Positions 1,755 through 58,693 of a stretch of 63,937 nt of DNA are shown in pieces. Both the position numbers and the translations under genes were made by a program. The number at the start of each line of letters is the position of its first letter. Position 1 is the stretch's first letter. The stretch is from an uncultured Gammaproteobacteria bacterium. GTDB taxonomy: Bacteria; Patescibacteriota; Microgenomatia; CAZTEW01. Where the stretch lies: NCBI GenBank assembly GCA_964612215.1, contig CAZTEW010000002.1, positions 1 to 63,937 of the forward strand. The letters are read 5' to 3'. The notes below the pieces were generated by a model. The model was not told the origin of the DNA, searched no databases, and worked only from the letters and a program-made list of their open reading frames with translations.

Positions 1755-1760
1755 CTCCTA

Positions 1761-1797
1761 ACACCTTAGAGGTGTAATCCTACCTACACCTTGGGTA
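1761..1797. repeat. Left flanking hairpin plus inverted-repeat arm of the Y1 transposase unit
   Basis: ACACCTTAGAGGTGT at 1761-1775 and ACACCTTGGGTA at 1786-1797. Confidence 0.75.
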
Positions 1798-2513: not shown

Positions 2514-2550
2514 TACCCAAGGTGTCAAGGGTATAACACCTTAGAGGTGT
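2514..2550. repeat. Right flanking inverted-repeat arm plus hairpin of the Y1 transposase unit
   Basis: TACCCAAGGTGT at 2514-2525 and ACACCTTAGAGGTGT at 2536-2550. Confidence 0.75.
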
Positions 2551-2556
2551 TAGGTT

Positions 2557-35274: not shown

Positions 35275-36341
35275 TTAATCAACTCCTCAAATTGCTGACA
35301 AAAAACCTTTTTACTGAACTTTTTGCTTTTTTGCTGACCCCGTCGCGCCAGCTTGCTGCGCAATCCTTCATTAATCATCAATTCCCGGGTGTATTTCAGC
35401 AGCTCTTTTTTCTTTTGCCAAAGAAAGCCGTCAAGCGCCTGATCAACAATCTCTTTCTGGCCGCCTTTAGCGCAAACCACGGGCACGCAGCCGGCAGCCA
35501 TGGCTTCCACGGTTCCGATGCCAAAGTGCTCGACTTTCTCCGGACTTTTCTCTTCATTAACGCCAAAGCCGGCGGCGTGCCAGTAAATTTTGGCTTCTCC
35601 GTAAAGATTCTGGAGGGTACTAAAATCAACGTTGGCCAAAATTTCTACGGACAAACCTTGAGCTGATTTTTTTAATTTTTCTAGCTTCCGGACGGCTCTC
35701 GCTTGAACCCCACCCGCCAGAATTAGACGCCAACCTCTTCGCTCTGCCTCTTCCATTTCTTTAAAAGCGCTCAAAAGGATGTTTTGCTTCTTAGCATGCA
35801 GAGGCGAATCAAATCTGGCTACCGAAAGAATAATATTTTTTTTCGGTTTGGCTGAGAATTCTTCTATGGCTACTGGCGGATAAATAACTTGGCTTTGAAT
35901 ATTGAACTCGCGGTCAATAAACTTTTTGGTAAAGAAAGAGTTGCAAACCACGGCGTTAACCTGACGTAGCTTCAGTTGATTCAGTAAAGAGCGACCGTGA
36001 ACACCAGTAAACGGCACCTGAAAATGGATAATCTTCTTTTGGCTGAAAAGAAAGGGCAGACTACCGTCAGAAAGATAGAAAATCAAATCATAAACGCGGG
36101 TGTTGTTTCTTCTTTGCCGAAAACCAGCCGGCTGAGAGAAAAGACGGTAGAGTCGGGGATTATACTGCAGGCCTTGAAAACGCAGATTAAATCGGGCGCT
36201 GGCTCTTTCCAAAGTTTCTTTTTCCGGCCAGAAAATTTCCACCTGATGGCCTTGAGACAACCAATATTCGGCTAAGGTCAAAGTATAGCGCTCGCCGCCG
36301 CCTAAAGTGTCTAAATAAGGATCAAAAAAACCAATTCTCAT
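35271..36341 (-). CDS. GT4-family (GT-B) glycosyltransferase
   Basis: 356 aa. EHFGIGTVEAMAAGCVPVV motif. Confidence 0.8.
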   Translation of the reverse strand: MRIGFFDPYLDTLGGGERYTLTLAEYWLSQGHQVEIFWPEKETLERASARFNLRFQGLQYNPRLYRLFSQPAGFRQRRNNTRVYDLIFYLSDGSLPFLFSQKKIIHFQVPFTGVHGRSLLNQLKLRQVNAVVCNSFFTKKFIDREFNIQSQVIYPPVAIEEFSAKPKKNIILSVARFDSPLHAKKQNILLSAFKEMEEAERRGWRLILAGGVQARAVRKLEKLKKSAQGLSVEILANVDFSTLQNLYGEAKIYWHAAGFGVNEEKSPEKVEHFGIGTVEAMAAGCVPVVCAKGGQKEIVDQALDGFLWQKKKELLKYTRELMINEGLRSKLARRGQQKSKKFSKKVFCQQFEELIK

Positions 36342-40316: not shown

Positions 40317-40945
40317 TGGGTGGTGATTTTGATTCTTGACTGGGTCAGAATGGCCACATCGCCAACAGTTGTTTTCATCTGGACGCGGTAAAGTTTTTTG
40401 CCAGGCGAAAGCGTCAACGGTGAAGAAATGACTAATCCCGGCGTACCGCCTTCCAAAGAAACCTCAGAATTCCAAACCATATGGCCGTCGGTGACATTAA
40501 AAAGTCGGGCATAGCCGCGCTGGTTGCCGTTAGGAATATTCAGACTGGCTTCAAAAACAACTTCTTTAATAGAACCGTATTGGGAAGAATCAATGTAGGT
40601 TTCCAGACCGATCATCTCCAGCCATTCGCGCGCCGTGGTTGAACCGCTGCCAAAGCTCACGAAGAATTCTTTAACTCCTTGGGCCGCTACGACTGGCTGT
40701 TTTTGGACTGATGGAGGCGCTGTTGCTTGAATAATTTCATCAATTTTTTCCAAACAGGCCGCTGGACAAACATCTATTTCAGCCGCCGGACTCGCTGTTT
40801 CTTCGATGATTGGTTCTTCTGGCGCGGGCGGTTGTGGCTTAACTGAATCAAGTTTTTGGAAAAACTTCATGTCTAAAAAAATCAGATTGGCAACAACCAG
40901 TATTAAAAGCGCCCAAAAAATGACTTGGAAAACCTTTGCCACCAT
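40313..40945 (-). CDS. N-terminally anchored extracytoplasmic protein of unknown function
   Basis: 210 aa. One N-terminal TM helix, a Pro/Glu-rich linker (KPQPPAPEEPIIEE), then a beta-rich C-terminal domain. No family recognised. Confidence 0.5.
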   Translation of the reverse strand: MVAKVFQVIFWALLILVVANLIFLDMKFFQKLDSVKPQPPAPEEPIIEETASPAAEIDVCPAACLEKIDEIIQATAPPSVQKQPVVAAQGVKEFFVSFGSGSTTAREWLEMIGLETYIDSSQYGSIKEVVFEASLNIPNGNQRGYARLFNVTDGHMVWNSEVSLEGGTPGLVISSPLTLSPGKKLYRVQMKTTVGDVAILTQSRIKITTQ

Positions 40946-41835
40946 TTTCCCTCCTTAGTCCAACTATTAATTAACCAGTGGTGTAATTCAGCGCCCATTT
41001 GTTTAAATTCTTTAGCGACTGCCTTTAAAAATTCTTTTTCTTGACTGGGAGGAAAGCCTTGTTTTTCCCAAATCTTGGCAAAAACGACCAAAGCATAAAA
41101 AGACTGCAGCAGCGCCAGCACCAAACCATGAAGGCCATCTTTAAAACCTTCCCGGGCAAAGAAAACCGAAAGAAAATCACGGGCCGGCATTCTGATGGCA
41201 TCATACCAATAGACTTTTTGACCGCGCTGCCGCAGACCTTTAACTTCATCCTCGGTATAAATCCGGTCCATCTTTTGGATAAACTGGGAAACGGTTTGGT
41301 AATTATGGTGCAGCAGCGGCGAGGTTAATTTCGCGGTTTCTCCCTGGACTTTGATTTTTTCATGAACATGCTGGCAGGGAAATTTCCCCTTGTTCCGCTG
41401 GAAAAGCCGCAGCTGATAATCCGGCCACCAGAGACCGTGTTGAATCCACTTACCAAAAATAATATTCTGCCGCGGCATCTCATAGCCTACTGGTAGTCTC
41501 TCCTCCGAGGTGGCCCGCCGACGAGGCGGGACTCCTCGGAGGTGGGACGACATTTCAGCGCTCAGCGCTGGTGTCACCCGTTCGTCGCCATCGAGGTTAA
41601 GAATCCAATCACCAGTCGCCTTTTCAAAGCCGAAGTTTTTGTTTTTATTAAGCATCGCTAGATTAGGTTTCACAAAAACCTTATTTGTGTATTGCCTGGC
41701 AATCGCCGCGGTTTTATCGGTCGAAGAGTTGTCAACAACAATCACCTCGTCCGCCAAGCCGCGGACCGATTCTAAACAGTCAGCTAAATTATTTTCTTCG
41801 TTAAAAACAGAAACCACTACCGAAATCTTCTTCAT
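40903..41835 (-). CDS. GT2-family glycosyltransferase (paralogue of 13316 and 38591)
   Basis: 310 aa. ISVVVSVFNEENNL, VIVVDNSSTDKT and LDGDE motifs. Confidence 0.8.
   Translation of the reverse strand: MKKISVVVSVFNEENNLADCLESVRGLADEVIVVDNSSTDKTAAIARQYTNKVFVKPNLAMLNKNKNFGFEKATGDWILNLDGDERVTPALSAEMSSHLRGVPPRRRATSEERLPVGYEMPRQNIIFGKWIQHGLWWPDYQLRLFQRNKGKFPCQHVHEKIKVQGETAKLTSPLLHHNYQTVSQFIQKMDRIYTEDEVKGLRQRGQKVYWYDAIRMPARDFLSVFFAREGFKDGLHGLVLALLQSFYALVVFAKIWEKQGFPPSQEKEFLKAVAKEFKQMGAELHHWLINSWTKEGKWWQRFSKSFFGRF
41500..41545. repeat. Type-1 palindromic element (46-nt canonical form) in frame
   Basis: CTCCTCCGAGGTGG-CCCGCCgacgaGGCGGG-aCTCCTCGGAGGTGG. A 46/46 match to 45882-45927, which lies in an unrelated gene. 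Confidence 0.9.
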
Positions 41836-43286: not shown

Positions 43287-44904
43287 AAGAATATCTTAGC
43301 ATAAAAAAAGCCAAGCCTAGCCAGGTTATTAGGCTAATCAGATTGGCCAGAGTTCTGATGGGCGTATTGGTAAAGCGCAGGTTCACTTGGTGCCGGCCAG
43401 CGGGCAGAGAAAGTTTGATTTTGCCGGCTTGGATTTGCGGCTCTTGTTCCTGGCCATCCATCCAGAGCCGCCAGCCGGGAAAATAGGCGGTGTTAATTAA
43501 AATTTCTCCGCCGGTTGGCGGATTGGCAGTAACCTCGAAGTTCAGTCGATGTGATTTAGAAATCAAATCGCTAATCGCCACTTCACCTGCCAAGACTACC
43601 ACCTTTTTCCAAGCCGCCTCATCCCGGTTGGTTGACACGGGAAAATCACGCGGCAGATATTCGTCAGAAATTCTCGAGGTCGTCCATTTAATATTTTCTT
43701 CATTGACATATTCGGCAACGCCAAAAGACAACATCCTTTCTGGCTGAAAAAATTTGGCGTTCAAAGTCAAAAGAATCAAAATCACCAAACCAACGCCCAG
43801 TTTTCCTCGCCAGCCTTGCTGGTTTAACCACCAAGCGGCGCTGCCGGCTAAAAACGAGCTGGCGGCCGTCGCCAAAACCAAAAACCGCCAAGGATATTGA
43901 ATAAAAGACATCAGCGGCGCTAATTGCCAGATAAAAGCGGAAAAGCGGCTCATTAGGAAAACAGCGAAAATTAATATTCCTAGGGTGACACCGATCGCCC
44001 GCTGCTGAAATTTAGTCTTAAGACAAATCAACGCTGCCACCCCAGCCATAATTAAGTGAAGTTTGCCAATCATCAAGCTCATCCCATCCCAGGGTCCGGG
44101 GGCGGAACCAGCAAAACCCCAAGGGCTATCCCAAAGCTGGCGTAGATAAACAAAATGCTCTCGCCAATCTGCGCCGGCGCCAATCTGGCTAAAAACCTGA
44201 GTCAATTTCATTTCTGTTAAGGCTGGCAACCAGTAAAAGGCGCTGGTTCCCAGCGCCAGAATTATGAATTTAGAATTATGAATTATGAATTGTCTTTTTT
44301 CTTGACTAAAGTAATAAAATATTAAAATAATAATGAATAAAAATATCGTCAGCATTAAAGCCGTTAAATTGTGAGAAAGAATCACGGCCGCATAAGCCAG
44401 GCCGCTGATGATCCACGAACGCCGCTTGAGACCGTAAAAAACCAAAGGCAGCCAGGCCATCGCCCAAAACTCACCGACGGCGCCCCGGACATAAATGTCC
44501 ACCGCATGATAAGGCGCGTACAGATAGAAAAGAGCGGCCACTATTCCACCGATTACTCCCCAGAATTCGCGAGCCAGTAAGAACATGGTTATCCCAGCCA
44601 GCAAGACACCGACCAGCATCATCATCTTTGTCGCTAATAAGGCGTTAAAGCCCAGAAGACATAGTCCGCCGCCAAAATAATAAGCCAGAGGCGCGTAGAA
44701 ATTAAAAATCGAATAGCCGTAACCATAACCCAAATCCGCCAGCTGGCGGACCGGAAACTGGCCGTCGCGCAGCGCCTCTCCCATTTGCTGAACCCGAACC
44801 ACTTGAGTATCGTCGTGAATCGGAAAAAAGCCATTAACCAGCAGCGGCCTGACTGCCCCAAGAGAAAGAATTAAAACAACTAATAACGGCCAAATTTTTT
44901 TCAT
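43279..44904 (-). CDS. Family A polytopic membrane protein, putative GT-C glycosyltransferase
   Basis: 541 aa. IHDDTQVVRV, AFYWLPAL and AYFPGWRLWM motifs, plus a C-terminal TM anchor. Confidence 0.7.
   Translation of the reverse strand: MKKIWPLLVVLILSLGAVRPLLVNGFFPIHDDTQVVRVQQMGEALRDGQFPVRQLADLGYGYGYSIFNFYAPLAYYFGGGLCLLGFNALLATKMMMLVGVLLAGITMFLLAREFWGVIGGIVAALFYLYAPYHAVDIYVRGAVGEFWAMAWLPLVFYGLKRRSWIISGLAYAAVILSHNLTALMLTIFLFIIILIFYYFSQEKRQFIIHNSKFIILALGTSAFYWLPALTEMKLTQVFSQIGAGADWREHFVYLRQLWDSPWGFAGSAPGPWDGMSLMIGKLHLIMAGVAALICLKTKFQQRAIGVTLGILIFAVFLMSRFSAFIWQLAPLMSFIQYPWRFLVLATAASSFLAGSAAWWLNQQGWRGKLGVGLVILILLTLNAKFFQPERMLSFGVAEYVNEENIKWTTSRISDEYLPRDFPVSTNRDEAAWKKVVVLAGEVAISDLISKSHRLNFEVTANPPTGGEILINTAYFPGWRLWMDGQEQEPQIQAGKIKLSLPAGRHQVNLRFTNTPIRTLANLISLITWLGLAFFMLRYSYG
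44257..44290. repeat. Period-7 repeat block containing the 28-nt string CAGAATTATGAATTTAGAATTATGAATT
   Basis: Identical block to 31577-31610. Encodes FIIHNSKFIIL. Confidence 0.85.
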
Positions 44905-46514
44905 TTTTTCAAAAGAAAGAGAACCACTAAAACGCTGATTAAGGAAACTAGGTCGGCCAAAAGACGCAATGGCGTTTCCTTAAAGACAGCCATCACTGAA
45001 TATTGACCGCCGGGCAGAGAAAAATCAATTAAGCCGGCTTGCTCATAATCAATCGGCTGGCGTTGACCGTCCCAGCCAGAGGCTGGTCCGCCTTTGGCGG
45101 AAATCACTAACTTCCAACCGGGAAAATAATGAGTGTTGAGGCGTAATCGGCTCGGCGCTGATAAGTCGGCCCGGAAAGCAACCCGGCGCGAATTAATGTC
45201 CAAGTCACTGATTTCACCGCTACCAGCAATAATTTCTACTTTTTGTTTAGCCCGCTTGTCCGGCATTTCTTTTACCCAAATGGGCGTGTATTCGGCGCCG
45301 ACGGTAGTCGTGTCTTCATTGGTCGTATAAAACCCAAGAGGTTGATTACTAAAATAAGCCGGTCGAGCGTATTGCCAGCCTTGCCAAACTAAAACTAGCG
45401 CCAAAATAATTACCAGGCCTTTTTGCCAGCGCCGGCTTGCTTGAGAAACTAAAAAACCGCCTAAGACTGAAGCAATAAAAGTGGTGAGCGCCAATAACCG
45501 CCAAGGGAACTGGATAAGATTGTAAACTGGAAAAAGCCGCCAAAGCCACCAAGACGGCGCTAACATCAGAAAAAAAGCCAGCCAAAAAGCAGAAACCCAG
45601 AATTTTAATTTTCGCCACCAAAATAAGCTGAGAGCGGCTACGGCTAAACTTAAAAGGCCGACTTGAAAAGAAATCCCATCTTCAAGAGAAAGGGGCAGAG
45701 ACGGACCATAGCCCCAAGAAGGTAATAATAATTGCTTTAAGCTCGGAAAGTGAAGAAAAAAATTACTGATCCTGGTCTGGCGGAAAAAAGTAAATTGCTG
45801 ATCCCAAAGAGCCGGCAACCAGAAAAAGCAACTCAAACCCAAACCCAATAAGATAGCGGCAGTCACTCTCTTGGCGGTAGGACTCCTCCGAGGTGGCCCG
45901 CCGACGAGGCGGGACTCCTCGGAGGTGGACGGCAAGAAAAGCCACCCCACCAGCAGGCCGCTAAAAAGCATCGCCATCGTATTATGCGACATTATTAGGC
46001 CGGCAAAAGCCAACCCAGCGACGATTTGATTTTGGCGAGATGGCTTCTCAATCTGCCAAAAGAGGAGAGGAGGGAAAACAAAAGCCAGGGCCTCGCCTAG
46101 TGAGCCGCGAACATAAACATCAACCAAGCGGTAGGGCGCGTAAACATAAAGCAAAGCGGCCATTAAACCAGCCAGTCTTCCCCACTTTTCCTTAAGCCAA
46201 AGGTACATGAAAATTCCAGACAAGAAAAAGCTAAGAATAAAAACCGCTTTTATCGCTTGGACAAAATCAAAGCCAATCAGATGAAAAAATTCCCCTAAAT
46301 AAAGCGGGAGCGGATAAAGAAAATTAAAAACCGGATAACCAAACTGGTGATTGAGACGGGCGGCCCAGCGCACCGGAATCTGGCCGGAAACAAAACTGCG
46401 GTGAAAATCAGAAAGCCTGACCACCATCCATTCGCCGTCGTGCGAAGGGAAAAAGCCGGGCGGCAGCAAAGAAAACACTAGCGGCAGCATTAAAAACAAA
46501 AGAAGCATTATCAT
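44901..46514 (-). CDS. Family A polytopic membrane protein, putative GT-C glycosyltransferase
   Basis: 537 aa. SHDGEWMVVRL, CFFWLPAL and HYFPGWKLVI motifs. Confidence 0.7.
   Translation of the reverse strand: MIMLLLFLMLPLVFSLLPPGFFPSHDGEWMVVRLSDFHRSFVSGQIPVRWAARLNHQFGYPVFNFLYPLPLYLGEFFHLIGFDFVQAIKAVFILSFFLSGIFMYLWLKEKWGRLAGLMAALLYVYAPYRLVDVYVRGSLGEALAFVFPPLLFWQIEKPSRQNQIVAGLAFAGLIMSHNTMAMLFSGLLVGWLFLPSTSEESRLVGGPPRRSPTAKRVTAAILLGLGLSCFFWLPALWDQQFTFFRQTRISNFFLHFPSLKQLLLPSWGYGPSLPLSLEDGISFQVGLLSLAVAALSLFWWRKLKFWVSAFWLAFFLMLAPSWWLWRLFPVYNLIQFPWRLLALTTFIASVLGGFLVSQASRRWQKGLVIILALVLVWQGWQYARPAYFSNQPLGFYTTNEDTTTVGAEYTPIWVKEMPDKRAKQKVEIIAGSGEISDLDINSRRVAFRADLSAPSRLRLNTHYFPGWKLVISAKGGPASGWDGQRQPIDYEQAGLIDFSLPGGQYSVMAVFKETPLRLLADLVSLISVLVVLFLLKK
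45076..45100. repeat. Type-3 palindromic micro-insertion (KGGPASGW cassette)
   Basis: CCAGAGGCTGGTCCGCCTTTGGCGG. Encodes SAKGGPASGW. Confidence 0.8.
45882..45927. repeat. Type-1 palindromic element (46-nt canonical form) in frame
   Basis: Identical to 41500-41545. Translated here as PSTSEESRLVGGPPRRS, a different frame from the GT2 copy. Confidence 0.9.
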
Positions 46515-48013
46515 GGCTTCACCTGATAAAGCCTTAACGAATAAGGTCTCTGAATCTTAGGATATTCAGCCACTAATTCCAAAGGCCACTCCTTGGGAAT
46601 ATCTCGCGTTTCATTAAAAACAAAATAAACCGGCCTCAACGCTGCTTTATCAATCAATTCTTGATTAATCTCATTAACTGGCCAATAACTTTTAATTTCA
46701 ACATTGTCATTATCCCAAAGATAAAGCTCGATCGAAGCTGGAAACATGCCAAAAGTGCCTTCAGTCGCCACCAAGATTGGTTGCTTCGCTGCCTTTGTTT
46801 CTAAAAGAACAATCATTTCTTTAATGCCGATACCTGATGGCCAGCTGGTGACGTATTGGCTTTTATCGCTGAAAGTAATTGGGGCCTGGGGCGGATTAAA
46901 AAGAATTTGATAATTAAAATATAGAATAAAGGCAAAAATCAAAATGCAAAATGCAAAAACCAAGAATCGTTTCGCCAGTCTCTGCGCTAGGCGATTAAAA
47001 GAATAAGCTGCCAGGATTAACAGAGGTAAAGTCATAAAAAAAATAAACCGAGGATAAAGAACCCTGCCAAAAAGAGCTAGAGCCGTAAAGGATGCCAAAA
47101 ACCAGCCGAAAAGCAACAGTCTTTCTTTTAAATATTTTTTCCAAAAAAATGAGCTGAAAACTAAAAGCAGCCAAGGCCAGGTCAAATATCTTCTAAGCCA
47201 ATCAAGCTCGCCCTTCAGATTGCCCCAGAGAAAAGTAAGCGGATGCTCAAGCCAATCTTTAAAGGGATAAACAAAAGTGGTGTCTTTCTGACTAATCATA
47301 TTGAAAAGCGGCGACAGCCGCAGGACCAGGTAAAAAAGCTGGGAAATAAAAACCGCCAAAACGGTTAAGCCAAGCCAAGCCAATAAGCGCCAGCGTTGAT
47401 TTTTTCTCCGCCAATCAAAAAGAATTAGGGTCAGGGGTAAAAAATAAATGCTTAGAAAACCAGAGGTTTTCGTTAAAACACCGCCGCCTAAGGCAAAACC
47501 CAAAATCAAGGCAATGTCTAGACGGAGAGTTTTGACCAATAACACGGCAAGTAATAAACTTAACAGTGAAAAAGTCCCGACTAAGCTGTCCATTAAAGCC
47601 ATTCGATCGTAAATCATGGCAAAGGGATAAAGAAGATAAAAGAACGAGGCCAGAAAGCTGACTTTCTTGTTTTTGAAAAAAACCCAGGCCAGCCACCAAG
47701 TCGTCACCATGCTTACCAAACCAGCCCCGACTGAAACCAAGCGGCCGGCGACCAAAGGGTCGGCAACAAGCTTCATCATCACCATGGTTAACCAAACAAA
47801 AAGAGGCTGTTTGCCGTCAGTCAGAGAAATAAACCGCCAGGAAGCGTCATTTTTAGCAATCTGAGCCCAGCGCAAATAAATCGCTTCATCAGTAAAAATA
47901 GGAATGATGGTGAGATTAATTAGCCGGATAATTAAAAAACCAAATAATAAAAGAAGAGCGGTTAAAATATCTTTGCGATTAAATCTCGGCCAAGCCATAT
48001 AAAGACAAGCCAT
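46511..48013 (-). CDS. ArnT-like (GT83-type) GT-C membrane glycosyltransferase
   Basis: The PIFTDEAIYLRWAQ...DGKQPLFVWL loop is typical of ArnT-like enzymes. I trimmed the ORF-track start (48319) to the ATG at 48013, because the longer form overlaps the upstream gene by 283 nt and that extension has no TM or family character. Confidence 0.65.
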   Translation of the reverse strand: MACLYMAWPRFNRKDILTALLLLFGFLIIRLINLTIIPIFTDEAIYLRWAQIAKNDASWRFISLTDGKQPLFVWLTMVMMKLVADPLVAGRLVSVGAGLVSMVTTWWLAWVFFKNKKVSFLASFFYLLYPFAMIYDRMALMDSLVGTFSLLSLLLAVLLVKTLRLDIALILGFALGGGVLTKTSGFLSIYFLPLTLILFDWRRKNQRWRLLAWLGLTVLAVFISQLFYLVLRLSPLFNMISQKDTTFVYPFKDWLEHPLTFLWGNLKGELDWLRRYLTWPWLLLVFSSFFWKKYLKERLLLFGWFLASFTALALFGRVLYPRFIFFMTLPLLILAAYSFNRLAQRLAKRFLVFAFCILIFAFILYFNYQILFNPPQAPITFSDKSQYVTSWPSGIGIKEMIVLLETKAAKQPILVATEGTFGMFPASIELYLWDNDNVEIKSYWPVNEINQELIDKAALRPVYFVFNETRDIPKEWPLELVAEYPKIQRPYSLRLYQVKP

Positions 48014-48036
48014 ATAAAGAATAGTATACCCAAGTT

Positions 48037-49194
48037 TTAAGAAGAAGTAAAAAACAACCAGGCGGTGAGGAGACCGAAACCGAAAGAGATAATGTTGAGG
48101 TTGGTTTTGATTTCTGGCACCGGTGGATTCCAATGGCCGAGATAAAAGAAAGGCGCGTAGTGTAAAAGTAGACCAATGGACAAAGCCATCATCGGCCAAA
48201 ACAGCCAGCGGCGCTGGCGGAGAAAAACCAGAAAAGGAAAGAGATATAACCAATACCAAGGCTGCATATTGGTTCTTCTGATTGCCAATAAAACCGCCAC
48301 CGCCATTAACCCAAAACAAGCTATCCAGATCTGATCATATTTAACTTTTTTCTTTTGCCATTGCTGAAAAGTTAACCAGAGAAACACCGGTGCCAACAAA
48401 GCAGTCGCGAATTTAATACCAATCGACAAAAACAACATTAACCAGCTTAAACCTGGCTTCTTTTCCAAGAAAAACCAAAACCCAGCTAAAATAAACATCA
48501 TCATCAAAAGATCATTATGACCAGAAACCAAGGCTTCAATAATCAGCAAAGGTTGAAAAGCAAAAAGGCCAAGAGCGAAAAGGGGCTGTTTTGTTTTCAG
48601 GCGAACAAGAATTTTTTCTAAAAACCAGCAGCTCCCTAGATAGCTGGCCACGGCTAAGGCTTTAAATAAAATCAGCGTCGGCAGCAGTTTTTGCCAACCC
48701 AAGAAAGATAAAGGTAAGCTTAATAACAGCCAAAATGGACCATAAGGATAATAAACATGAGTCCAGTGCATAAAACCCAACATGGGATCACCAGGAAAAT
48801 CTAAAGGTCGTTTAATGTACGGACTTTGCTGATAATAAGTAATAATCTTCGCCCAGAAAACATAATTAAACAGATCATAAGAAAAAGCATTGTAGGCTAG
48901 CCACAAAATACCGGCCGTCAGAAAAATCAAGCGCCAAACCTGCCGACGGTCTAATTTTCTCCTCTGAATCGTCCTTAACATTAGGCAGTAAAAAGTAAAA
49001 AGAGAAATCAAAATTCCCAGATAAAGTCCGGTTGATAATGGCCTTTGAAAATAGCCAATCTGCTGAAACACTTTCTGGGTCGTTTGCCACCAAGAAGCCC
49101 GGGTTAAAGTTAAACCCAAATCTATCTGGACGAAAGAGTAAAAAAAGAGAGCAATAATCGTCGCCAGCCAACCGATAATAATCATTGATAGCAA
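48037..49194 (-). CDS. GT87/DUF2029-like membrane glycosyltransferase (paralogue of 10975)
   Basis: 385 aa. YPYGPFWLLLSLP and GHNDLLMMMFILAGFWFFLEKK motifs. Confidence 0.6.
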   Translation of the reverse strand: MLSMIIIGWLATIIALFFYSFVQIDLGLTLTRASWWQTTQKVFQQIGYFQRPLSTGLYLGILISLFTFYCLMLRTIQRRKLDRRQVWRLIFLTAGILWLAYNAFSYDLFNYVFWAKIITYYQQSPYIKRPLDFPGDPMLGFMHWTHVYYPYGPFWLLLSLPLSFLGWQKLLPTLILFKALAVASYLGSCWFLEKILVRLKTKQPLFALGLFAFQPLLIIEALVSGHNDLLMMMFILAGFWFFLEKKPGLSWLMLFLSIGIKFATALLAPVFLWLTFQQWQKKKVKYDQIWIACFGLMAVAVLLAIRRTNMQPWYWLYLFPFLVFLRQRRWLFWPMMALSIGLLLHYAPFFYLGHWNPPVPEIKTNLNIISFGFGLLTAWLFFTSS

Positions 49195-49940
49195 CCTAAT
49201 AAATCATTTAATTTTACCCGGAGAATTTCCTGCAGCATTTCTTTTGATTCTTTGAAAAACTTTCTTTTTTTACCACTGGCGACATCCCGATCTTGCCAAT
49301 CAACAATCACTTCTTTGATTTTATAGCCTCGCTTCTGAGCCAGAAAAAGCAGTTCGACGTCAAAAGCGCTCACTCGCCAGCCTTTGGTTTTGGTCGCTTT
49401 CTGGAAAATTAAAAGCCGGCTAAAAAGTTCTTGAGCGATTTTGGTTTTGAAAGCTTTAAAGCCGCATTGGGTATCAGTCAAATTGCGCAGCAAAAAAGTT
49501 TGTCTGAAAACCCGAAAACCATGACTGACCAAAAGTCGAAAAAAAGAAAACCCTTCTCTTTTCTGGCCGCGCGAGCCGATGACGATATCAAAACCTTTTT
49601 TAAAAAATGGCAGCAGCTTCGCTATTTCTTTGATTGGCGCTGATTGGTCCATGTCCGCAAAAAGAACGATTTCGCCTTGAGCCGCGGTGACGCCGGCCCG
49701 AATGGCAAAAGCCTTGCCGGCGTGATGATTTTCTAAAAGCCGGAACCGCCGGTGATCTGTCAGGTATTTTTTCACCAACGCCAGACTACCATCACTCGAG
49801 CCGTCATCACTGATAATCACTTCGCTGGCGTATTTTTGTTGGACCAAATAACCCTCAATCTGCTCTAAGACGCCGCGCTCCAAATTCTCTTTTTCGTTAT
49901 AGCAGGGAACCACCACCGAAAGATAGATTTTTTCAGACAT
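49182..49940 (-). CDS. GT2 polyprenyl-phosphate glycosyltransferase (DPM1/GtrB-like)
   Basis: 252 aa. LSVVVPCYNEKENL, VIISDDGSSDGS and FADMDQS motifs. Confidence 0.75.
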   Translation of the reverse strand: MSEKIYLSVVVPCYNEKENLERGVLEQIEGYLVQQKYASEVIISDDGSSDGSLALVKKYLTDHRRFRLLENHHAGKAFAIRAGVTAAQGEIVLFADMDQSAPIKEIAKLLPFFKKGFDIVIGSRGQKREGFSFFRLLVSHGFRVFRQTFLLRNLTDTQCGFKAFKTKIAQELFSRLLIFQKATKTKGWRVSAFDVELLFLAQKRGYKIKEVIVDWQDRDVASGKKRKFFKESKEMLQEILRVKLNDLLGCYQ

Positions 49941-52227
49941 ATTTCTTTTTAATTCTACACCAAGCAGCGGTTAAGAGCCAAACTCCCAGGCTGATGGCTG
50001 ACAAATAAAGTCCGATTTGAAAAGACAGGGGTTGGTAATGAAATTCTATTTCGTGTTCTCCAGGTGCTATCGCCACGGCCCGTAAGGCATGGTTGGCGCG
50101 TCGAATCGGCACTGTTTGGCCATCCACACGGGCACGCCAGCCAGGATAATCAGCGTCTGTTAAAACTAGCAAGCCCGGACCGTTACTTTTGGTTTGAAGC
50201 CTGATTCGCTGCGATTCTCCGCTGATAATTTCCGTTTGGCCGCGGCTAAATTCCTGATCTTCACTCTCACCAGCCAAAATCACTTGGCTTCCCGGGTTAA
50301 AATCCGGTGAATTAAAAATCTCTTCAAATTCGGTCTGGTCAGCAACATAATAGACTTTTGTCGCTAAGAAGGCTCGGTCAGCTGCTTTTTTGTTTTCATA
50401 AATTCGCCAGCCGTCTTTTTGGTAAATTAAAGGGTAGTCTTCTGGTAAAAAAGTAGTTTCGTCAGTATCATTTTCTATTCGGTCCAAAATATAGCGAACA
50501 TTTAACATTTTCAGTATTTTTTGCCGAGCTTGGTTCTGGGGAAAATCTTCACGGCCAAAACCAGGAGCAATATTGGCGTTGGAACGAATCGCCGGTTTAA
50601 ATTGACCGCCTTCGGATAAACGAAGATATTCACCGTACCAGCGCGGATAAAGCGGGTCATAGCCGTCAGACGAAAAAAGACCATAAATTAAGTTGTAATT
50701 AGGACTCACCGCCGCGGTGCCATAACCCCAGAAACGGCCATCTCTTTGCTTGAGAAAATTAAAGATTTCTGTTTCCGGAAAAATAAATTCCGGCGGTGAA
50801 AACGGCGTGATTTTCTGGAAAAAGCGGCCCAAGTCAAGAACCACAAAAATAATCAGCAGCCATGGCAGCAGCCAGCCGGCAAATCTGATTTTTTTGAGCA
50901 AGAGTAATCCTGCCGCCACCGCCAATACAGCACTGGAATAAAGCAAGTTTCGCTGGGTCACGCTGGCAAATTTCCCTAAAGAAAAAAGCCAGGCAGTTAA
51001 AAAAACTAAACCAATACCCAGTAAGGCATACCGCCAGCGCCTGACCGCTACTTTTTGCCACCAGTCAAAACCAAAACCGGCCAAAACCGCTAAACTGAAT
51101 TGAAAGATAAAGAGAATTCTGGTCGGTGAAAGACTGGAAAACAGCGGCCAAGAATAAAGCCAGCTTGATAACGGCGTGGCCATCGCCAATAAAAGCGTCC
51201 CGCCAGCGCTAATTAAGAAAAACTTCAAATACCAATCCTTTTTACGAAGCAGATTAATGACTGCCAATAATAACGGCAGTAGGCCGATATAAAGAACCTT
51301 GCCGATGTAAGTATCGTCAAGCAGGTAATTCCGCGTGGCCGGGTTGCCAAAATAATCAGGCACGAAAGCGTTAATTAACTGGTAGGGCCGGAGCAGGACT
51401 TTACTCATTAAAAAGTCTTTTGCCAGTGGACTGCGAGCGCTGTGAAAAATTAGTTCTAATCCCGGCAAAAGCTGAACCGCGCCTAAAAAGAAAGGCAATA
51501 ACCATAACCACACCAATCTTCGCGAACGAAGTAAATAGTAAATCAAACTAAACAACCAAACAACCGCAAAATCCTGAAAATGACCGGCTAAAAGAGAGAA
51601 GGTCAGCGACCAAACCAGCAAGCTTCCCCGCCAAAAAGAAACTTTCTCGAGCAAAAGCTCAATCGCCAGTAAAACCAAAGGCAACCACAAAATAACCTGA
51701 CCGACTGTGTTGTATTCCAACCAAACTGTCATAAAGCTGGAATAGCCAAAAGCAATTGCTGACAACAAGCTGCCGCTTAAAGAAATTTTTAGTCGACGAG
51801 CAAAAAGATAAAAGAAAAGCGAAGCTAATAATGGCTGGAGAATGACCTGAATTCCCCAGGCCAATTTAAAATCAGCCAAACCGTATAAAAAGTTTAAAGG
51901 ATAAAAAACAGCTGACTGGAAATTAGCCAGTAGCGGGGCGCCGCTGAAATTGTAAGGATTCCAAAGCGGCCATTGACCCTGCTTCAGCTGAGATATCGCC
52001 AGCCAGCGCCAAGGGTAAAGCTGGCAAAGAGTGTCAAATGATTGGGCTTTATGGGGAATGGCTCCCGCGGCAAAGCCAAAAAACGAAGATTGCCGATAGG
52101 GATTATACTCGGCTAAAAGCAGGTCGCCGGGAAAGGGCAGTTGTCCTTTCAGATAAAAAGGGCGAAAAAAGAAAAGATTAACCAGAAATAAAATCGTCAA
52201 AGCCAGAAAAACAGATTTCTTCACCAC
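49933..52227 (-). CDS. YfhO-family GT-C membrane glycosyltransferase
   Basis: 764 aa. FPGDLLLAEYNPY, WNPYNFSGAPLLANFQSAVFYPLNFL, PDYFGNP and DYPGWRARVDG motifs. Confidence 0.8.
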   Translation of the reverse strand: MVKKSVFLALTILFLVNLFFFRPFYLKGQLPFPGDLLLAEYNPYRQSSFFGFAAGAIPHKAQSFDTLCQLYPWRWLAISQLKQGQWPLWNPYNFSGAPLLANFQSAVFYPLNFLYGLADFKLAWGIQVILQPLLASLFFYLFARRLKISLSGSLLSAIAFGYSSFMTVWLEYNTVGQVILWLPLVLLAIELLLEKVSFWRGSLLVWSLTFSLLAGHFQDFAVVWLFSLIYYLLRSRRLVWLWLLPFFLGAVQLLPGLELIFHSARSPLAKDFLMSKVLLRPYQLINAFVPDYFGNPATRNYLLDDTYIGKVLYIGLLPLLLAVINLLRKKDWYLKFFLISAGGTLLLAMATPLSSWLYSWPLFSSLSPTRILFIFQFSLAVLAGFGFDWWQKVAVRRWRYALLGIGLVFLTAWLFSLGKFASVTQRNLLYSSAVLAVAAGLLLLKKIRFAGWLLPWLLIIFVVLDLGRFFQKITPFSPPEFIFPETEIFNFLKQRDGRFWGYGTAAVSPNYNLIYGLFSSDGYDPLYPRWYGEYLRLSEGGQFKPAIRSNANIAPGFGREDFPQNQARQKILKMLNVRYILDRIENDTDETTFLPEDYPLIYQKDGWRIYENKKAADRAFLATKVYYVADQTEFEEIFNSPDFNPGSQVILAGESEDQEFSRGQTEIISGESQRIRLQTKSNGPGLLVLTDADYPGWRARVDGQTVPIRRANHALRAVAIAPGEHEIEFHYQPLSFQIGLYLSAISLGVWLLTAAWCRIKKKYV

Positions 52228-52254
52228 TATTAACTATTATATAATAAAGTTAGT

Positions 52255-53865
52255 GTGTTGAAAAAATTAATCATTGTTGGCTTTCTTTTTAGCTTATTAC
52301 TTCGTTTCTATCAATTTGGCCAAATTCCGCCGGGATTAAACCGCGACGAAGCTTCTTTAGGCTATACTGCTTATTCGCTCCTGAAGAGCGGCCGCGACGA
52401 ATATGGAATAAAGTTCCCATTAACCATCAAGTCTTTTGGCGATTGGAAACTGCCGGGCTATATTTACACCCTGATTCCTTTTATCGCTATTTTTGGTCTT
52501 CAAGGCTGGGTCATCCGCCTGCCGTCGGCTCTGGCCGGCTTAGGCACGATTATTGTCATTTATTTTTTAGGGAAAGTTATTCCGCCCCCGCAGTGGAGCC
52601 ACAAATCCACTGCGGGGGCGGTTATGGCTAGCTTTCTCCTCGCCACCAGTCCCCTGCATCTCCACCTCTCCCGAGCTGGTTATGAAGCTAGTCTGGCGCT
52701 TTTCTTTTTTAGTCTCGCTCTCCTCTTTTTTCTCCGCTCTCGGTTCATCATCTCTTTTATCCTCTTTGCTCTGACTCTTTATACTTATCATGCCTATCAT
52801 CTTCTAGCGCCTCTTTTTCTGGTCCTGCTTCTTTATCAGCGGCGTCAGTCGCTTAACCGCAAGCTGATTGCCGGTTTGGGGATTTTTTTGGTCTTGGCTG
52901 CGATTATCTTTTATCTCAATTTCAGCGCCAATCTGACCAAAGCCAGCGGCATCACCTTTATAACTGACCCTGTTTTTATTCATAATCAAATTAATGAACC
53001 CCGCTCTCAAATTGCCAATCCCCTGCTCGGCCGCCTCATTTATAACAAGCCAGTTATCTTCGGGAAAACTTTTATGCTTAACTATCTAGCCAGTTTCTTG
53101 CCGCGATTTCTGGTCTTTCAAGGCGGCCGCCATCCAGTTCACAATGTTCCTGGTGTTGGCCCGGTTCTGCTTGTTGTTTATCTTTTGTTTTTTGTCGGCC
53201 TCTATCAGCTAATTAAAAAACCAAATAACCGCCTCCTTCTTGGCTGGCTCTTATTAACGCCCCTAGCTTCAAGCATTACTATTGATGCTCCTAGTACCGT
53301 TCGTTTAACACCAATGATTGTTCCTTTCTGTTTGATTAGCTCTTTGGGTTGGGAAAAATACAAACGCTTCACTTCAATTATTATCCTGATTATTTTTGTT
53401 AATCTGGCGCTTTTCGGCCGCCAGTATTTTCAAATCCTGCCTCGAGAACGAGCCCAAAATTGGGGGGCTGGTTATCAAGAATTAGCCAGCTATCTTAATC
53501 TGCCGGAAAGCGTCGCCCGCCCGGTCATCATGTCCCGACCAAATTATTCACCTTATATCTACTTTCTTTTTTACCAAAATTACCCACCGGCCCGGTATCA
53601 ACGAGAAGCGGTTCGCTACCCAGCGACCACTGACGGCTTCTTTCATGTTAAAAGCTTTAGCCGTTATCAGTTTGGAGATTTTGATCCCTTAGAAGCTGTC
53701 AATCAGGGTAAGGCTGTTGTTCTCTGGGCTGATGAAGAAATTGAGACGCTGATCGCTCCTTTTCTCCAAAAAACTATCTCTTATCGAGAAAAGCCGGTAT
53801 TTTATCTCTTTGCCAAAAAACAAGACCTAGCAAAACCAGCGCTCCCAGAGAAATCATTTCGCTGA
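52255..53865 (+). CDS. Family C PMT/ArnT-like membrane glycosyltransferase
   Basis: 536 aa. LRFYQFGQIPPGLNRDEASLGYTAYSLLKSGRDEYG and ATSPLH motifs. The 3' end overlaps the convergent gene by 92 nt. Confidence 0.8.
   Translation: MLKKLIIVGFLFSLLLRFYQFGQIPPGLNRDEASLGYTAYSLLKSGRDEYGIKFPLTIKSFGDWKLPGYIYTLIPFIAIFGLQGWVIRLPSALAGLGTIIVIYFLGKVIPPPQWSHKSTAGAVMASFLLATSPLHLHLSRAGYEASLALFFFSLALLFFLRSRFIISFILFALTLYTYHAYHLLAPLFLVLLLYQRRQSLNRKLIAGLGIFLVLAAIIFYLNFSANLTKASGITFITDPVFIHNQINEPRSQIANPLLGRLIYNKPVIFGKTFMLNYLASFLPRFLVFQGGRHPVHNVPGVGPVLLVVYLLFFVGLYQLIKKPNNRLLLGWLLLTPLASSITIDAPSTVRLTPMIVPFCLISSLGWEKYKRFTSIIILIIFVNLALFGRQYFQILPRERAQNWGAGYQELASYLNLPESVARPVIMSRPNYSPYIYFLFYQNYPPARYQREAVRYPATTDGFFHVKSFSRYQFGDFDPLEAVNQGKAVVLWADEEIETLIAPFLQKTISYREKPVFYLFAKKQDLAKPALPEKSFR
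52582..52621. repeat. Type-2 hairpin element (16-bp perfect stem, 8-nt loop) in frame
   Basis: CCGCCCCCGCAGTGGA-gccacaaa-TCCACTGCGGGGGCGG. Translated as PPPQWSHKSTAGAV. Confidence 0.9.
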
Positions 53866-55471
53866 TTTGGCGGAGTTTGGTGCGGGTGAAGCGAACTTCG
53901 ACTTGGTACTCACCAGGAGACAATCGGAAAGTAATCAAGCCGCGATGATTCTGATCCTGAAACTGAATCGGCGGCTCGGCACCATCTCGGCCAAAGGCCG
54001 ATCCGCCTTTGGCGGAAACCAAAACCCGCCAGCCGGGAAAAAAGTGAGTTCGATCTAAAACATTGACTTCGGTGCTGGCTTTAAGCGCGAAGCGATGACT
54101 GGTAGAACTGCGTTCAAGATTAATTATTTCGCCATCACCCTCAATAATTTCCACATACTCCCCTGGATATCTAGCCGGCGGACTGGCCGCCCAAATCGTA
54201 TCCGCCTCACCAAAATAGGTCGTATTCAACGGGTAATGCCAATAATCCTGCTCGTTAATCTGATCAAACCCCAAAGTTTGCCAAAAAGGCAAGCTAGTGA
54301 AAAAAACAGCGATGACAATTAACCAATAAAATCCGATCCGCCCCCGCAGTGGAGCCACAAATCCACTGCGGGGGCGGTTATAGGTGATCGCGGCTGTCAG
54401 AGAAGTCGCCAAAACCACCAGAGTCAAAAAGCGCCAGGAAAATTGAAACTGCCGCAGCACCGGCATTCGCTGCCACAAAGGAATTGAAATTTCCTGCATC
54501 ACTACCAGACAAATCAAAAACAACAACCAAGAAAAAATAACCAGTCGTTTTTCGCATACCGGTAGCTTTTTTTGCCAAACCAGCCAACCGGCCAGCGCCA
54601 AGCTCAACAGCGGCAATAAGCCCACCTGAACACTAATATCATGAACCTGACCCCAGGCTTGATTAAGAAGATTAGGAACAAATAATTGCTTTAAGCTCGG
54701 AAAATGCTCTAAATACAGGTTTTTCATGAATAAATCGCCATAAGTGTATTTTCTTTCCAATAAGGCCGGCAGCCAATACCAGCTGGCCAGCGCCATCCCC
54801 CAACCGGCCGCTAACCAAGCAACAACTCGACTTGACCAATTCGGCGCGGCCAGCAGTGTAAAAAGCAGCAGGGCACTAAAGAAAACCAGGCTAATCGAAT
54901 TGTGAGTCAAAATTAACAAAGCCACTCCCAAAACCGTCAAGAAAAATCCCTGACGATAATTTTGTTTAAAAATCTTGGCGATGCCCCATAAAGCCAAAGC
55001 TAAAAAAGCATAAGTCCAAACCTCGCCGAAAGCGCCGCGGACCAGCATTTCGATTAAACGAAAACCGTGAAACTGATAAAACAAGGCCAGTAAAAAGGCT
55101 TTTCTCTCGTCAGTCAAGAGTTCGCGGCCGGCCAGAAACATTAACGGCCCGGAAAATAAAAAACTTAGAAAAAGAACCAGTTTATAAGTGAAAACCAACC
55201 CTAAGCCGGTTTTCAAGAATAAATAGCTGAGAAAATACGGCCAAGGATAAGTAAAAATCAGAATCGGCGTGCCGTAACCGTAATCTAGTCCACTCGCCCA
55301 CCGCGGCGGCCATTGACCGTCTTCAGCCGCCTGAAACCAAGCCGCCATTCTCGCCAAATGAACCGGACCGTCATGCGTATGAAGCATTAATGACGACCGG
55401 AAAATCACCAGTCCTGGCAACAACGATAAAAAAAGAATCAGCCAGAGAAATTTATTCTTCTTGAATTTCAT
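53774..55471 (-). CDS. Family A polytopic membrane protein, putative GT-C glycosyltransferase
   Basis: 565 aa. THDGPVHLARM, SWYWLPAL and HFFPGWRVLV motifs, plus a C-terminal TM anchor. Confidence 0.7.
   Translation of the reverse strand: MKFKKNKFLWLILFLSLLPGLVIFRSSLMLHTHDGPVHLARMAAWFQAAEDGQWPPRWASGLDYGYGTPILIFTYPWPYFLSYLFLKTGLGLVFTYKLVLFLSFLFSGPLMFLAGRELLTDERKAFLLALFYQFHGFRLIEMLVRGAFGEVWTYAFLALALWGIAKIFKQNYRQGFFLTVLGVALLILTHNSISLVFFSALLLFTLLAAPNWSSRVVAWLAAGWGMALASWYWLPALLERKYTYGDLFMKNLYLEHFPSLKQLFVPNLLNQAWGQVHDISVQVGLLPLLSLALAGWLVWQKKLPVCEKRLVIFSWLLFLICLVVMQEISIPLWQRMPVLRQFQFSWRFLTLVVLATSLTAAITYNRPRSGFVAPLRGRIGFYWLIVIAVFFTSLPFWQTLGFDQINEQDYWHYPLNTTYFGEADTIWAASPPARYPGEYVEIIEGDGEIINLERSSTSHRFALKASTEVNVLDRTHFFPGWRVLVSAKGGSAFGRDGAEPPIQFQDQNHRGLITFRLSPGEYQVEVRFTRTKLRQISEMISLGALVLLGLVFWQRDKIPAFLDKR
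53991..54015. repeat. Type-3 palindromic micro-insertion
   Basis: CCAAAGGCCGATCCGCCTTTGGCGG. Encodes SAKGGSAFGR after HFFPGWRVLV. Confidence 0.8.
54338..54377. repeat. Type-2 hairpin element (16-bp perfect stem) in frame, in a gene on the opposite strand from the identical 52582 copy
   Basis: A 40/40 match to 52582-52621, with flanking tccg...ttat also shared. Translated on the minus strand as RPRSGFVAPLRGR. Confidence 0.9.
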
Positions 55472-57751: not shown

Positions 57752-57757
57752 ATGAGA

Positions 57758-57994: not shown

Positions 57995-58032
57995 TTGACA
58001 AATTATCACAGGTGTCATAATTTGTCAATTTT
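57995..58032 (+). terminator. Perfect 12-bp inverted repeat plus T-tract (intrinsic terminator on the plus strand; could also be an operator or promoter palindrome)
   Basis: TTGACAAATTAT-cacaggtgtc-ATAATTTGTCAA followed by TTTT. It overlaps the dedA stop codon (58025-58027). On either strand it also reads TTGACA-N17-TAATTT. Confidence 0.5.
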
Positions 58033-58693
58033 GGAGTTGATTTTTATTTTTATTTTGCCAGTGGCGGTGACGTTTAAGCTTGTGGCGGAAGTAGCCGATG
58101 CCGGCAGCAAGAAAAAGGCCAACCAAAACCGCGTCGAATTTATGAAAATAGCCACCCAGAGAATCCCAATTTTCTCCTAGTTTCACTCCCAGCCAGGCTA
58201 GAGCCGCTGACCAGAGAAACGAACCGACGGTCGTATAAAAAGCAAACTTAGGGAAGTTCATCCGGCTAATTCCGGCCGGCAAGGAAATAAAAGTCCGGAC
58301 TACGGGTAATAATCGCGAGGTAAAGGCAATCACTTCGCCATGTTTTTGGAACCAGTGAATCGCTTCGTCCAGTTCATACTCAAAAACCAAAACAAATTTT
58401 CCCCAGCGCCGGATTAACTGGCGGACAATCTCCTCGCCAAAACGCGCTCCTAACCAATAAGCCAAGGCTGACCCTAAAAGGCAGCCAATGGCGCCGGCCA
58501 AAGCCACCAGCCAGAAATTAAACGCACCCAGAGCCACTAAAAACCCGGAGAAAGGCATGATAATTTCCGAAGGCAAAGGAATGCAGGCGGATTCGATGGC
58601 CATCGCCAAAACAATGCCGAAATAGCCTAAACTGGAAATCAGGTTTTTGACAAAAACAGCCAGAATAATCAGGATTTGAGAAACGAAGTTCAT
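58025..58693 (-). CDS. dedA: DedA-family membrane protein
   Basis: 222 aa. LGYFGIVLAMAIESACIPLPSEIIMPFSGFL is typical of the DedA/SNARE-associated family. Confidence 0.8.
   Translation of the reverse strand: MNFVSQILIILAVFVKNLISSLGYFGIVLAMAIESACIPLPSEIIMPFSGFLVALGAFNFWLVALAGAIGCLLGSALAYWLGARFGEEIVRQLIRRWGKFVLVFEYELDEAIHWFQKHGEVIAFTSRLLPVVRTFISLPAGISRMNFPKFAFYTTVGSFLWSAALAWLGVKLGENWDSLGGYFHKFDAVLVGLFLAAGIGYFRHKLKRHRHWQNKNKNQLQN

Follow-up and report, generated by a model that had tools for sequence, protein, structure and literature searches.

Why should the same perfect hairpin lie in the middle of two unrelated genes that are translated from opposite strands? The question is raised by a 63,937-nt contig (CAZTEW010000002.1 of GenBank assembly GCA_964612215.1; its whole length is referred to here as the window) from an uncultured bacterium that GTDB places in the Microgenomatia of the Patescibacteriota, a group also called the Candidate Phyla Radiation (CPR). 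Two identical copies of a 40-nt GC-rich hairpin, and a third diverged one, are embedded in genes for membrane proteins of this contig; we refer to them as family 1. Our analysis indicates that the hairpin is probably a short, GC-rich, non-autonomous palindromic repeat of which a Patescibacteria genome has acquired copies at several sites, and that it is of the kind represented by repetitive extragenic palindromes (REPs), Rickettsia palindromic elements (RPEs) and yeast mitochondrial GC clusters. It is most likely a selfish repeat carried in frame in tolerant loops of membrane glycosyltransferases, and not a transcription terminator.

The hairpin is translated in three frame and strand combinations

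The preliminary description of this DNA had reported that the 40-mer CCGCCCCCGCAGTGGAgccacaaaTCCACTGCGGGGGCGG is present twice in the same genomic orientation, once in a plus-strand gene and once in a minus-strand gene, and that it forms a perfect hairpin. Both observations were confirmed: exact copies are located on the plus strand at 52582-52621 (copy 1) and 54338-54377 (copy 2), each with a 16-bp stem of 81% GC closed by an 8-nt loop, and no match to the 40-mer was found in any of 100 dinucleotide shuffles of the window. The predicted RNA folding energies of these two copies are -44.4 and -39.6 kcal/mol (z of -8.6 and -5.7), and those of the family-1 copies altogether range from -38 to -44 kcal/mol (z of -4.5 to -8.6). 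Copy 1 is read as PPPQWSHKSTAGAV within the plus-strand open reading frame (ORF) 52255..53865 (gene C), copy 2 as NRPRSGFVAPLRGR within the minus-strand ORF 53774..55471 (gene A), and the diverged copy 3 (21423-21460) as RPRGVATNPPRGR within the plus-strand ORF 21072..22784. All three ORFs are intact, and the copies occupy different frames or strands. The 40-nt unit itself is read in three frame/strand combinations that yield the unrelated peptides PPPQWSHKSTAGA, RPRSGFVAPLRGR and RPRSGATNPLRGR, and the 40-mer is free of stop codons in all six frames.

Copy 3 had been described earlier as differing from the other two by paired changes that preserve base pairing. The paired A:T to G:C change is indeed present (alignment columns 13/32), but the pairing is not fully kept, as one uncompensated G to T change in the stem leaves T opposite C. 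Copy 3 further differs by C to T at an outer position, which in RNA makes a U.G wobble, and by one change in the loop.

The sequencing runs that contain this sequence are groundwater metagenomes. Both identical copies are spanned without differences by Logan contigs from two independent groundwater runs, so that they are not an assembly artefact. Placing metagenome contigs on a 56-nt stretch containing the hairpin revealed a single extra locus: these two metagenomes contain a fourth copy, which carries two differences and whose flanks are unrelated. In total, three copies of family 1 were detected in the window and one in the metagenomes. In viral contigs, 18 matches to the stem core were unrelated, terminator-like hairpins of phages with ~53% GC.

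Family 1 is present, absent or altered among close relatives

Comparison of the copy-3 gene with its ortholog on contig L012 (86% nucleotide identity) showed that exactly 39 nt are absent from the latter, and this is the only internal indel in the 1.6-kb alignment. The segment is also missing from 15 of the 15 other full-length homologs aligned. In gene A, the full peptide encoded by the insert was found in just one of 38 aligned homologs (P0121 of contig L010, 86% amino acid identity) and a remnant in the L008 ortholog; the 36 more distant homologs (41-62% identity) have no insert there, save for P0134 with an unrelated 45-residue insert. The gene-A copy is confined to the closest clade.

The close relatives of gene A also differ in the hairpin itself. 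The L009 hairpin occupies the same position and differs in one base out of 40, an A to G change in the loop. L010 has the loop GCCACGAA, which exactly reverse-complements that of L009, TTCGTGGC. L008 is a sister strain of L009, and gene C is 100% identical in the two; the L008 hairpin lacks 30 nt between two GGATT direct repeats, and what is left is a solo arm in an intact ORF. The gene-C ortholog of L008 and L009 (74% amino acid identity) has a different sequence in the loop that hosts the hairpin. Thus, family 1 shows in-frame insertion variable among orthologs, as RPEs do, with indels of 39 and 30 nt; their lengths are multiples of three, which indicates that the segment is translated and not excised. 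Both identical copies in the window have A at the loop position where L009 and L010 have G, and this shared, window-specific base suggests copying or homogenisation within this genome.

The family-A gene of L009 bears a 334-nt deletion (at ~12518) relative to L008 (10418-10751). As the deletion breaks the frame, the strain with the complete hairpin probably has a pseudogene here.

The stem is conserved beyond its flanks

The preliminary description had taken the paired change in copy 3 as evidence that the stem is under selection. Conservation of the stem did emerge, from a different source than covariation. At the gene-A locus, the stem is identical in 32 of 32 positions, whereas the identity of the flanks is 0.87 for L010 and 0.73 for L009; at the rate at which the flanks diverge, the chance of an unchanged stem is ~0.013 and 5e-5, respectively. 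Conservation extends to third codon positions, and on the left side of the locus it ends exactly at the hairpin boundary. In the covariation count over five copies, by comparison, one compensated pair, one wobble and one broken pair were found, a count equalled in 335 of 500 shuffles, so that the formal test has no power and the single compensated pair carries no statistical weight. The unit under constraint is probably the DNA hairpin and not the peptide, nor probably the mRNA.

Other palindrome families occupy coding loops in a uniform orientation

Family 1 is not the only palindrome of this kind in the window. Counting perfect hairpins with a GC content of 60% or more and a stem of 9 bp or longer, we found nine, versus 0.6 expected from shuffles. 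There are at least three families of GC-rich palindromes, and all of them lie in frame. Family 2 has arms CACCTCCGAGGTG and CCTCGGAGGTG, which often enclose an inner CCCGCC...GGCGGG hairpin, and its half-sites occur 14 times versus 0.14 expected. It is hosted in frame by a TPR protein (twice), three GT39 paralogs, a GT2 enzyme and a PTPS_related protein, and another PMT_2-like protein (5601..7211) has a solo arm. The loop that family 2 occupies in the three GT39 paralogs is the one that also hosts family 1. The tetranucleotide GTAG lies within 15 nt upstream of three of the seven family-2 copies, and no match to the family was found in viral contigs.

Family 3 consists of 15-nt mini-hairpins (TCCGCCnnnGGCGGA type) in pairs of 30 nt, and three such doublets are present in the window. 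Two of the three doublets are found at the homologous turn PGW(R/K)xxV|DG of two paralogs, where both are clean 30-nt insertions missing from the L009 and L010 orthologs. In family-3 units beside the constant TCCGCCtttGGCGGA, paired changes keep a 6-bp stem (TCCGCC/GGCGGA, TCGGCC/GGCCGA, CCAGCC/GGCTGG, and TCAGCC/GGCTGA in L033), although this list comes partly from a search that required complementarity and is not an unbiased test. The doublet at 53984-54018 reaches a word depth of ~1977 in groundwater run X4, with many different flanks, and similar doublets occur in a few IMG/VR contigs (L033 and L036, at 38-39% GC, and L034). The repeat, tiny as it is, seems to be very widespread. At the turn YPGWRxxV|DG, which is the site of the family-3 insert in other paralogs, the YfhO-like proteins encoded by L009 (7675..9981) and by the window (22774..25194) carry a 7-residue segment, RPLANYG or RPLTNYG, that is not found in the window gene 49933..52227.

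Further palindromes were noted at the loops that host families 1 and 2. The GT39 loop contains another palindrome with perfect 12-bp arms in L012 (1333-1367, GATCCCGGATCG...CGATCCGGGATC), an unrelated one in L008 (~8250-8300, ATCCaCGATCG...CGATCGGGAT) and an imperfect AT-rich one of ~90 nt in L040 (gene 315-2024, residues 107-160). The insert of P0134 (L011 gene 2679-4466, residues 367-411) is a 135-nt in-frame segment with three small hairpins at the loop of the gene-A hairpin; the near-identical P0131, P0132 and P0136 do not have it. Two GC-rich perfect 20-nt palindromes without loops, CCTGCCTGCCGGCAGGCAGG (11310-11329) and TGAGCCGCGGCCGCGGCTCA (37924-37943), are in frame in genes 10975..12138 and 36322..38631.

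Judged by asymmetric markers, each family has one genomic orientation (seven of seven copies of family 2, three of three for family 1 and likewise for family 3). The hosts of families 1 and 2 are on both strands, and the chance of such uniformity is ~0.001; therefore, orientation follows the chromosome and not transcription or translation. Transposition of IS200/IS605 elements is single-stranded and coupled to replication, and yields an orientation bias of this type. The strand-specific bias found here is a likeness to these elements in mechanism, not in membership.

A RAYT-like transposase gene is bracketed by related hairpins

The window encodes a 225-residue protein (1807..2484) that resembles REP-associated tyrosine transposases (RAYTs), in which the HUH motif NHFHL (residues 89-91) and the tyrosine motif RYIHLNP (residue 149) are intact. 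It matches Pfam family PF01797 (Y1_Tnp) above the gathering score (41.5 bits, E-value 1.7e-10), and its only NCBIfam match is NF047646, REP-associated tyrosine transposase, with 49.3 bits, below the equivalog cut-off of 80. A sequence search of the PDB gave no match, and the protein was found elsewhere only at the same locus in two other assemblies. The gene is flanked by two hairpin modules, which sit in two of the rare intergenic gaps of the window. Both modules contain the 13-nt palindrome CACCTTAGAGGTG, the pair ACACCTTGGGTA / TACCCAAGGTGT is inverted between them, and GTAGGTAG adjoins one of the flanking hairpins. A RAYT and its REPs are arranged in this way in the 'REPtron' (PMC3733652). 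The flanking palindrome matches the family-2 arm in 11 of 13 positions, a similarity that points to a link between the transposase and family 2. Just outside one flank of the transposase gene, a 15-nt tandem duplication (AAGGTGTTAGGAGTT x2) is present.

A model for the spread of family 1 and the evidence against it

The window is 98.3% coding, with just 1057 nt between genes, so that nearly every insertion would by default fall within a gene. The insertions that survive would be those with a length that is a multiple of three, no stop codon and a position in a tolerant loop or turn, where the insert would be translated simply as 10-13 extra residues; the GT39 loop that hosts the hairpin varies among homologs from 2-4 to more than 30 residues. 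The stem would be kept since the hairpin is what gets recognised and copied, and since copies correct each other, while the loop would be free to mutate and to flip through recombination between the arms. Slippage between short direct repeats may remove part of the hairpin. The most likely route of propagation would be single-strand 'peel and paste', catalysed by a tyrosine transposase of the Y1/HUH type, for which the RAYT-like enzyme described above is a candidate; the single chromosomal orientation of all copies would fit this route. Gene conversion between copies would be the alternative. That any transposase moves family 1 is an inference.

Several observations weigh against this model. 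The association of the transposase with family 1 would be by analogy only, because family 1 carries no tag and does not resemble the hairpins on either side of the gene: none of the tetranucleotides GTAG, CTAC, CGTC and GACG lies within 15 nt of any family-1 copy. Neither an unambiguous target-site duplication nor a conserved target motif was found for family 1. The dinucleotides that flank the copies are AT/AT, AT/TT or TT/TT, which is weak evidence given the AT-rich context, and on the 3' side of copy 3 the divergence from the empty site is such that a duplication is not resolvable there. The family is low in copy number, and the element was not found in the GTDB species-representative genomes or in the JGI metagenome collection with a seed of the loop plus one arm; these scans returned only seven chance matches, in GC-rich genomes and with the other arm missing. 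With so few copies, the complete identity of the stem at the gene-A locus is poorly explained by copy correction alone and could reflect a function at the level of the host. Finally, the recurrence of different palindromes at the same protein loops might be due to site-specific targeting or selection and not to mere tolerance.

Alternative explanations of the hairpin

The palindromes might instead have arisen locally and de novo, by template switching or hairpin-primed repair at fragile sites, with the similarity between copies being secondary (gene conversion among clustered paralogs) and no transposition involved. Such an origin would agree with the unrelated palindromes at one loop in orthologs and paralogs, the solo arm retained in L008, the tandem duplication that abuts copy 3, and the distance of just 1.7 kb between the identical copies. 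We nevertheless consider it unlikely. Identical 40-mers lie in non-homologous genes without flank similarity, a further copy is in an unrelated context, the multi-copy families have conserved internal architecture as well as uniform orientation, and the 39-nt insertion is clean, with an empty site that offers no local template.

A cis-acting role at the RNA level appears improbable too, whether as a leaky terminator or attenuator, as an element for RNase III or stability, or as a site where translation pauses behind a transmembrane segment. The predicted hairpins are very stable, the stems are conserved beyond coding constraint, and two of the three copies follow a transmembrane-like segment. 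The preliminary description had suggested that copy 2 could act as a leaky terminator or attenuator within gene A, on the grounds of a U run on the minus strand; the run (UUUU) does start 6 nt after the stem on the coding strand, where AUCGGAUUUUAUUGG follows the copy. However, a scan for the consensus of intrinsic (Rho-independent) terminators, defined as a GC-rich stem with a U-rich tract within 0-2 nt, called none of the copies; the sites called in the region 51500-56000 were at chance level (7 vs 6.5), and copies 1 and 3 have no U tract. Family 1 shares with such terminators the GC-rich stem-loop but lacks an adjoining U tract, lies mid-ORF with conserved coding sequence downstream, is oriented independently of transcription, following the chromosome and not the gene, and is dispensable, given that close orthologs and paralogs work without it. 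The inverted loop in L010 and the half-deleted hairpin with an intact ORF in L008 also speak against a role in RNA, as do the indel lengths, which mark the segment as translated, and the location of related elements at beta-turns and N-termini. A search of the window against Rfam at gathering thresholds gave no match. The proposal of a terminator is thus not supported, although a minor effect at the RNA level keeps a small probability.

Selection at the protein level would make the palindromy incidental, the Pro/Arg/Gly-rich loop extensions being favoured as positive-inside loops or flexible linkers. The inserts do lie in loops and turns and contribute flexible or charged residues, and the same loops carry inserts repeatedly. 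This explanation is very hard to reconcile with the translation of the same DNA into unrelated peptides in three frame/strand combinations, with conservation at the nucleotide level including third positions, and with the lack of an insert in most homologs. As for an assembly or amplification artefact, errors of assembly or of multiple displacement amplification can yield perfect palindromes such as chimeric inverted repeats, but the same hairpin at the same sites in the window, in Logan X1 and X2, in ENA ERZ24794676 and in Logan SRR32194795 effectively refutes it.

Four further classes of element were considered and rejected: a CRISPR repeat (there is no array), a diversity-generating retroelement with its initiation of mutagenic homing site (DGR/IMH; the copies are not at gene 3' ends and no template repeat is present), a spliced intervening sequence (the indel lengths are multiples of three) and a DNA uptake sequence (the inserts are whole modular hairpins and not short words).

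Comparison with known palindromic elements

Intragenic REPs and REP-RAYT 'REPtrons' were reviewed by Di Nocera et al. 2013 (PMC3733652), according to whom REP stems are 5-13 bp long and one end of the unit bears an unpaired GTAG or CGTC tag. The elements described here resemble REPs in being short (20-40 bp), GC-rich palindromic repeats with several families per genome and with some units located within genes, where they add 10-30 translated residues to loops, and in the Y1 tyrosine transposase gene bracketed by related hairpins, although here the flanks resemble family 2 and not family 1. Family 1 differs from REPs by its perfect, longer stem (16-18 bp) without a GTAG/CGTC tag, by its low copy number (3-4 detected, compared with tens to thousands) and by its entirely intragenic location, as REPs are predominantly extragenic; the host is moreover a CPR bacterium with almost no intergenic DNA.

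RPEs (Ogata et al. 2000 and 2002, as summarised in PMC10969869) are likewise palindromic selfish DNA found in frame in unrelated genes, translated, tolerated by the protein and present or absent among orthologs. They are, however, ~100-150 bp long and read in one frame as a conserved peptide, whereas family 1 is a 40-nt unit read in several frames, in another phylum and without sequence relationship to RPEs. The 42-nt palindromic GC42 clusters of yeast mitochondria (Wu and Hao 2015, PMC4478555) are GC-rich palindromes of ~40 nt in an AT-richer genome, and family 1 shares with them stems more constrained than loops, presence or absence in close relatives, partial ('subunit') remnants and a transposition mechanism that is not established. 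In contrast to family 1, which is bacterial, low in copy number and coding, GC42 is organellar, high in copy number and mostly intergenic, and an AG target duplication has been proposed for it.

Mitochondrial genes of Nematomorpha (PMC6649704) likewise contain perfect inverted repeats within translated sequence, but there both arms encode conserved protein regions and the repeats are long, up to 284 bp, while family 1 is an insertion in non-conserved loops. With regard to miniature inverted-repeat transposable elements, the whole family-1 unit is one inverted repeat, and the flanking dinucleotides are too short and AT-rich to call a duplication. In summary, family 1 works like REP, RPE and GC42 elements without belonging to a described family.

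Genomic setting and further features of the locus

The window is a 64-kb island of envelope-glycosylation genes, with many GT39/PMT_2, PTPS_related and YfhO paralogs, GT2 and GT4 enzymes, a flippase and sugar-nucleotide enzymes. Nearly all of its genes are on the minus strand, its GC content is 43.6% and its GC skew does not change sign. Metagenome-assembled genomes of Microgenomates, Levybacteria, Gottesmanbacteria and 'Patescibacteria group' contain the closest named homologs. The features of the window discussed here are listed in Table 1. In gene A, the family-1 hairpin corresponds to residues 365-378 and the family-3 doublet to residues 486-495.

Table 1. Palindromic repeats, host genes and transposase locus in the window
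Feature	Position	Strand	Remarks
Family-2 palindrome, arms CACCTCCGAGGTG / CCTCGGAGGTG	148..226		In frame in TPR protein gene 108..1754
Family-2 palindrome	1234..1292		Second copy in TPR gene 108..1754
Hairpin module, 3' side of transposase gene	1757..1797		CACCTTAGAGGTG palindrome, CTACCTAC (GTAGGTAG on the other strand), ACACCTTGGGTA
RAYT-like Y1 (HUH) transposase gene, 225 aa	1807..2484	-	Candidate trans-acting mobiliser of hairpin repeats
Hairpin module, 5' side of transposase gene	2514..2556		TACCCAAGGTGT (inverted) and CACCTTAGAGGTG
Family-3 doublet	13631..13660		GT2 gene 13316..14164 (SAKGGSASGG)
Family-2 palindrome	17278..17314		GT39 paralog 16011..17660, family-1 loop; 37-mer identical to 20666-20702
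Family-2 palindrome	20666..20702		GT39 paralog 19336..21045, same loop; different palindrome there in L012 ortholog
Host gene of copy 3	21072..22784	+	GT39/PMT_2 paralog
Family-1 hairpin, diverged (copy 3)	21423..21460		13-bp perfect stem; one compensated pair, one mismatch
12-nt tandem duplication, GGGCGGTTAGAG x2	21456..21479	+	Overlaps 3' end of copy 3; read directly from sequence
Family-2 palindrome	41493..41551		GT2 gene 40903..41835; GTAG on 5' side, GACG on 3' side
Family-3 doublet	45072..45101		Paralog 44901..46514, homologous PGW(R/K)xxV|DG turn; absent from L009 ortholog
Family-2 palindrome	45885..45925		Gene 44901..46514
Host gene C	52255..53865	+	GT39/PMT_2-type membrane glycosyltransferase; hairpin in variable-length loop, ~aa 110-123
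Family-1 hairpin (copy 1)	52582..52621		In GT39 gene; plus-strand loop GCCACAAA; plus-strand frame 1 translation PPPQWSHKSTAGA
Host gene A	53774..55471	-	Polytopic membrane protein; orthologs match PF10131 PTPS_related
Family-3 doublet, TCGGCCaaaGGCCGA + TCCGCCtttGGCGGA	53987..54016		Clean 30-nt in-frame insertion (SAKGGSAFGR), window-specific
Family-1 hairpin (copy 2), identical to copy 1	54338..54377		In PTPS_related-like membrane protein gene; minus-strand translation RPRSGFVAPLRGR

The Pfam PMT_2 matches of genes 16011..17660, 17657..19339, 19336..21045 and 21072..22784 stop at about residue 112-121. As this is exactly where the palindromic inserts begin, the inserts degrade the domain annotation of these glycosyltransferases. 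The convergent genes C and A overlap at their 3' ends by 92 nt (53774-53865), an arrangement kept in L008 (7931..9559 and 9468..11096). The ORF 46511..48319 (602 residues from a TTG start) has an N-terminus 107 residues longer than its 87%-identical L009 ortholog (495 residues); judging from this comparison, its true start is probably near 47998, which would leave no overlap with 48037..49194. An AT-rich 12-bp perfect inverted repeat, TTGACAAATTATcacaggtgtcATAATTTGTCAA (57995-58028), lies in the largest intergenic gap (57680-58024), enters ORF 58025..58693 by 4 nt and contains TTGACA; by its sequence, it looks like an operator or promoter. In L009, a Gp49-like / HTH gene pair of toxin-antitoxin-like character (304-913) adjoins the glycosylation cluster.

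Implications for compact genomes

A full-text literature search found no report of in-frame palindromic repeats in Patescibacteria/CPR. Such repeats have classically been a Rickettsia curiosity, with scattered intragenic REPs elsewhere. One practical consequence concerns annotation: the inserts break Pfam matches in glycosyltransferases and mimic regulatory hairpins, although they are probably not such.

It is conceivable, though in our estimation improbable, that the hairpins act as a built-in generator of loop variation in the surface glycosylation machinery of compact CPR genomes, a host-level role to which we give some small weight because of the recurrent insertion at the same loops, the strict stem conservation at low copy number and the uniform orientation. 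If so, glycosyltransferases could be varied rapidly and reversibly through the flip-flop of the loop (GFVAP vs GATNP), through partial deletions that keep the frame and through the exchange of palindromes at the same loop, and the strict conservation of the stem would reflect this role and not pure selfishness. REP-like hairpins and their Y1 transposase would then have shifted wholesale into the coding loops of CPR genomes that have almost no intergenic DNA.

This locus is a compact natural experiment. A few closely related groundwater lineages together show a RAYT-like transposase and hairpins of three families, along with true empty sites, an inverted loop and a deletion by slippage. The locus yields a testable prediction, namely that insertion is strand-specific and linked to replication, and it shows the fate of REP-type selfish DNA in a genome without intergenic space.

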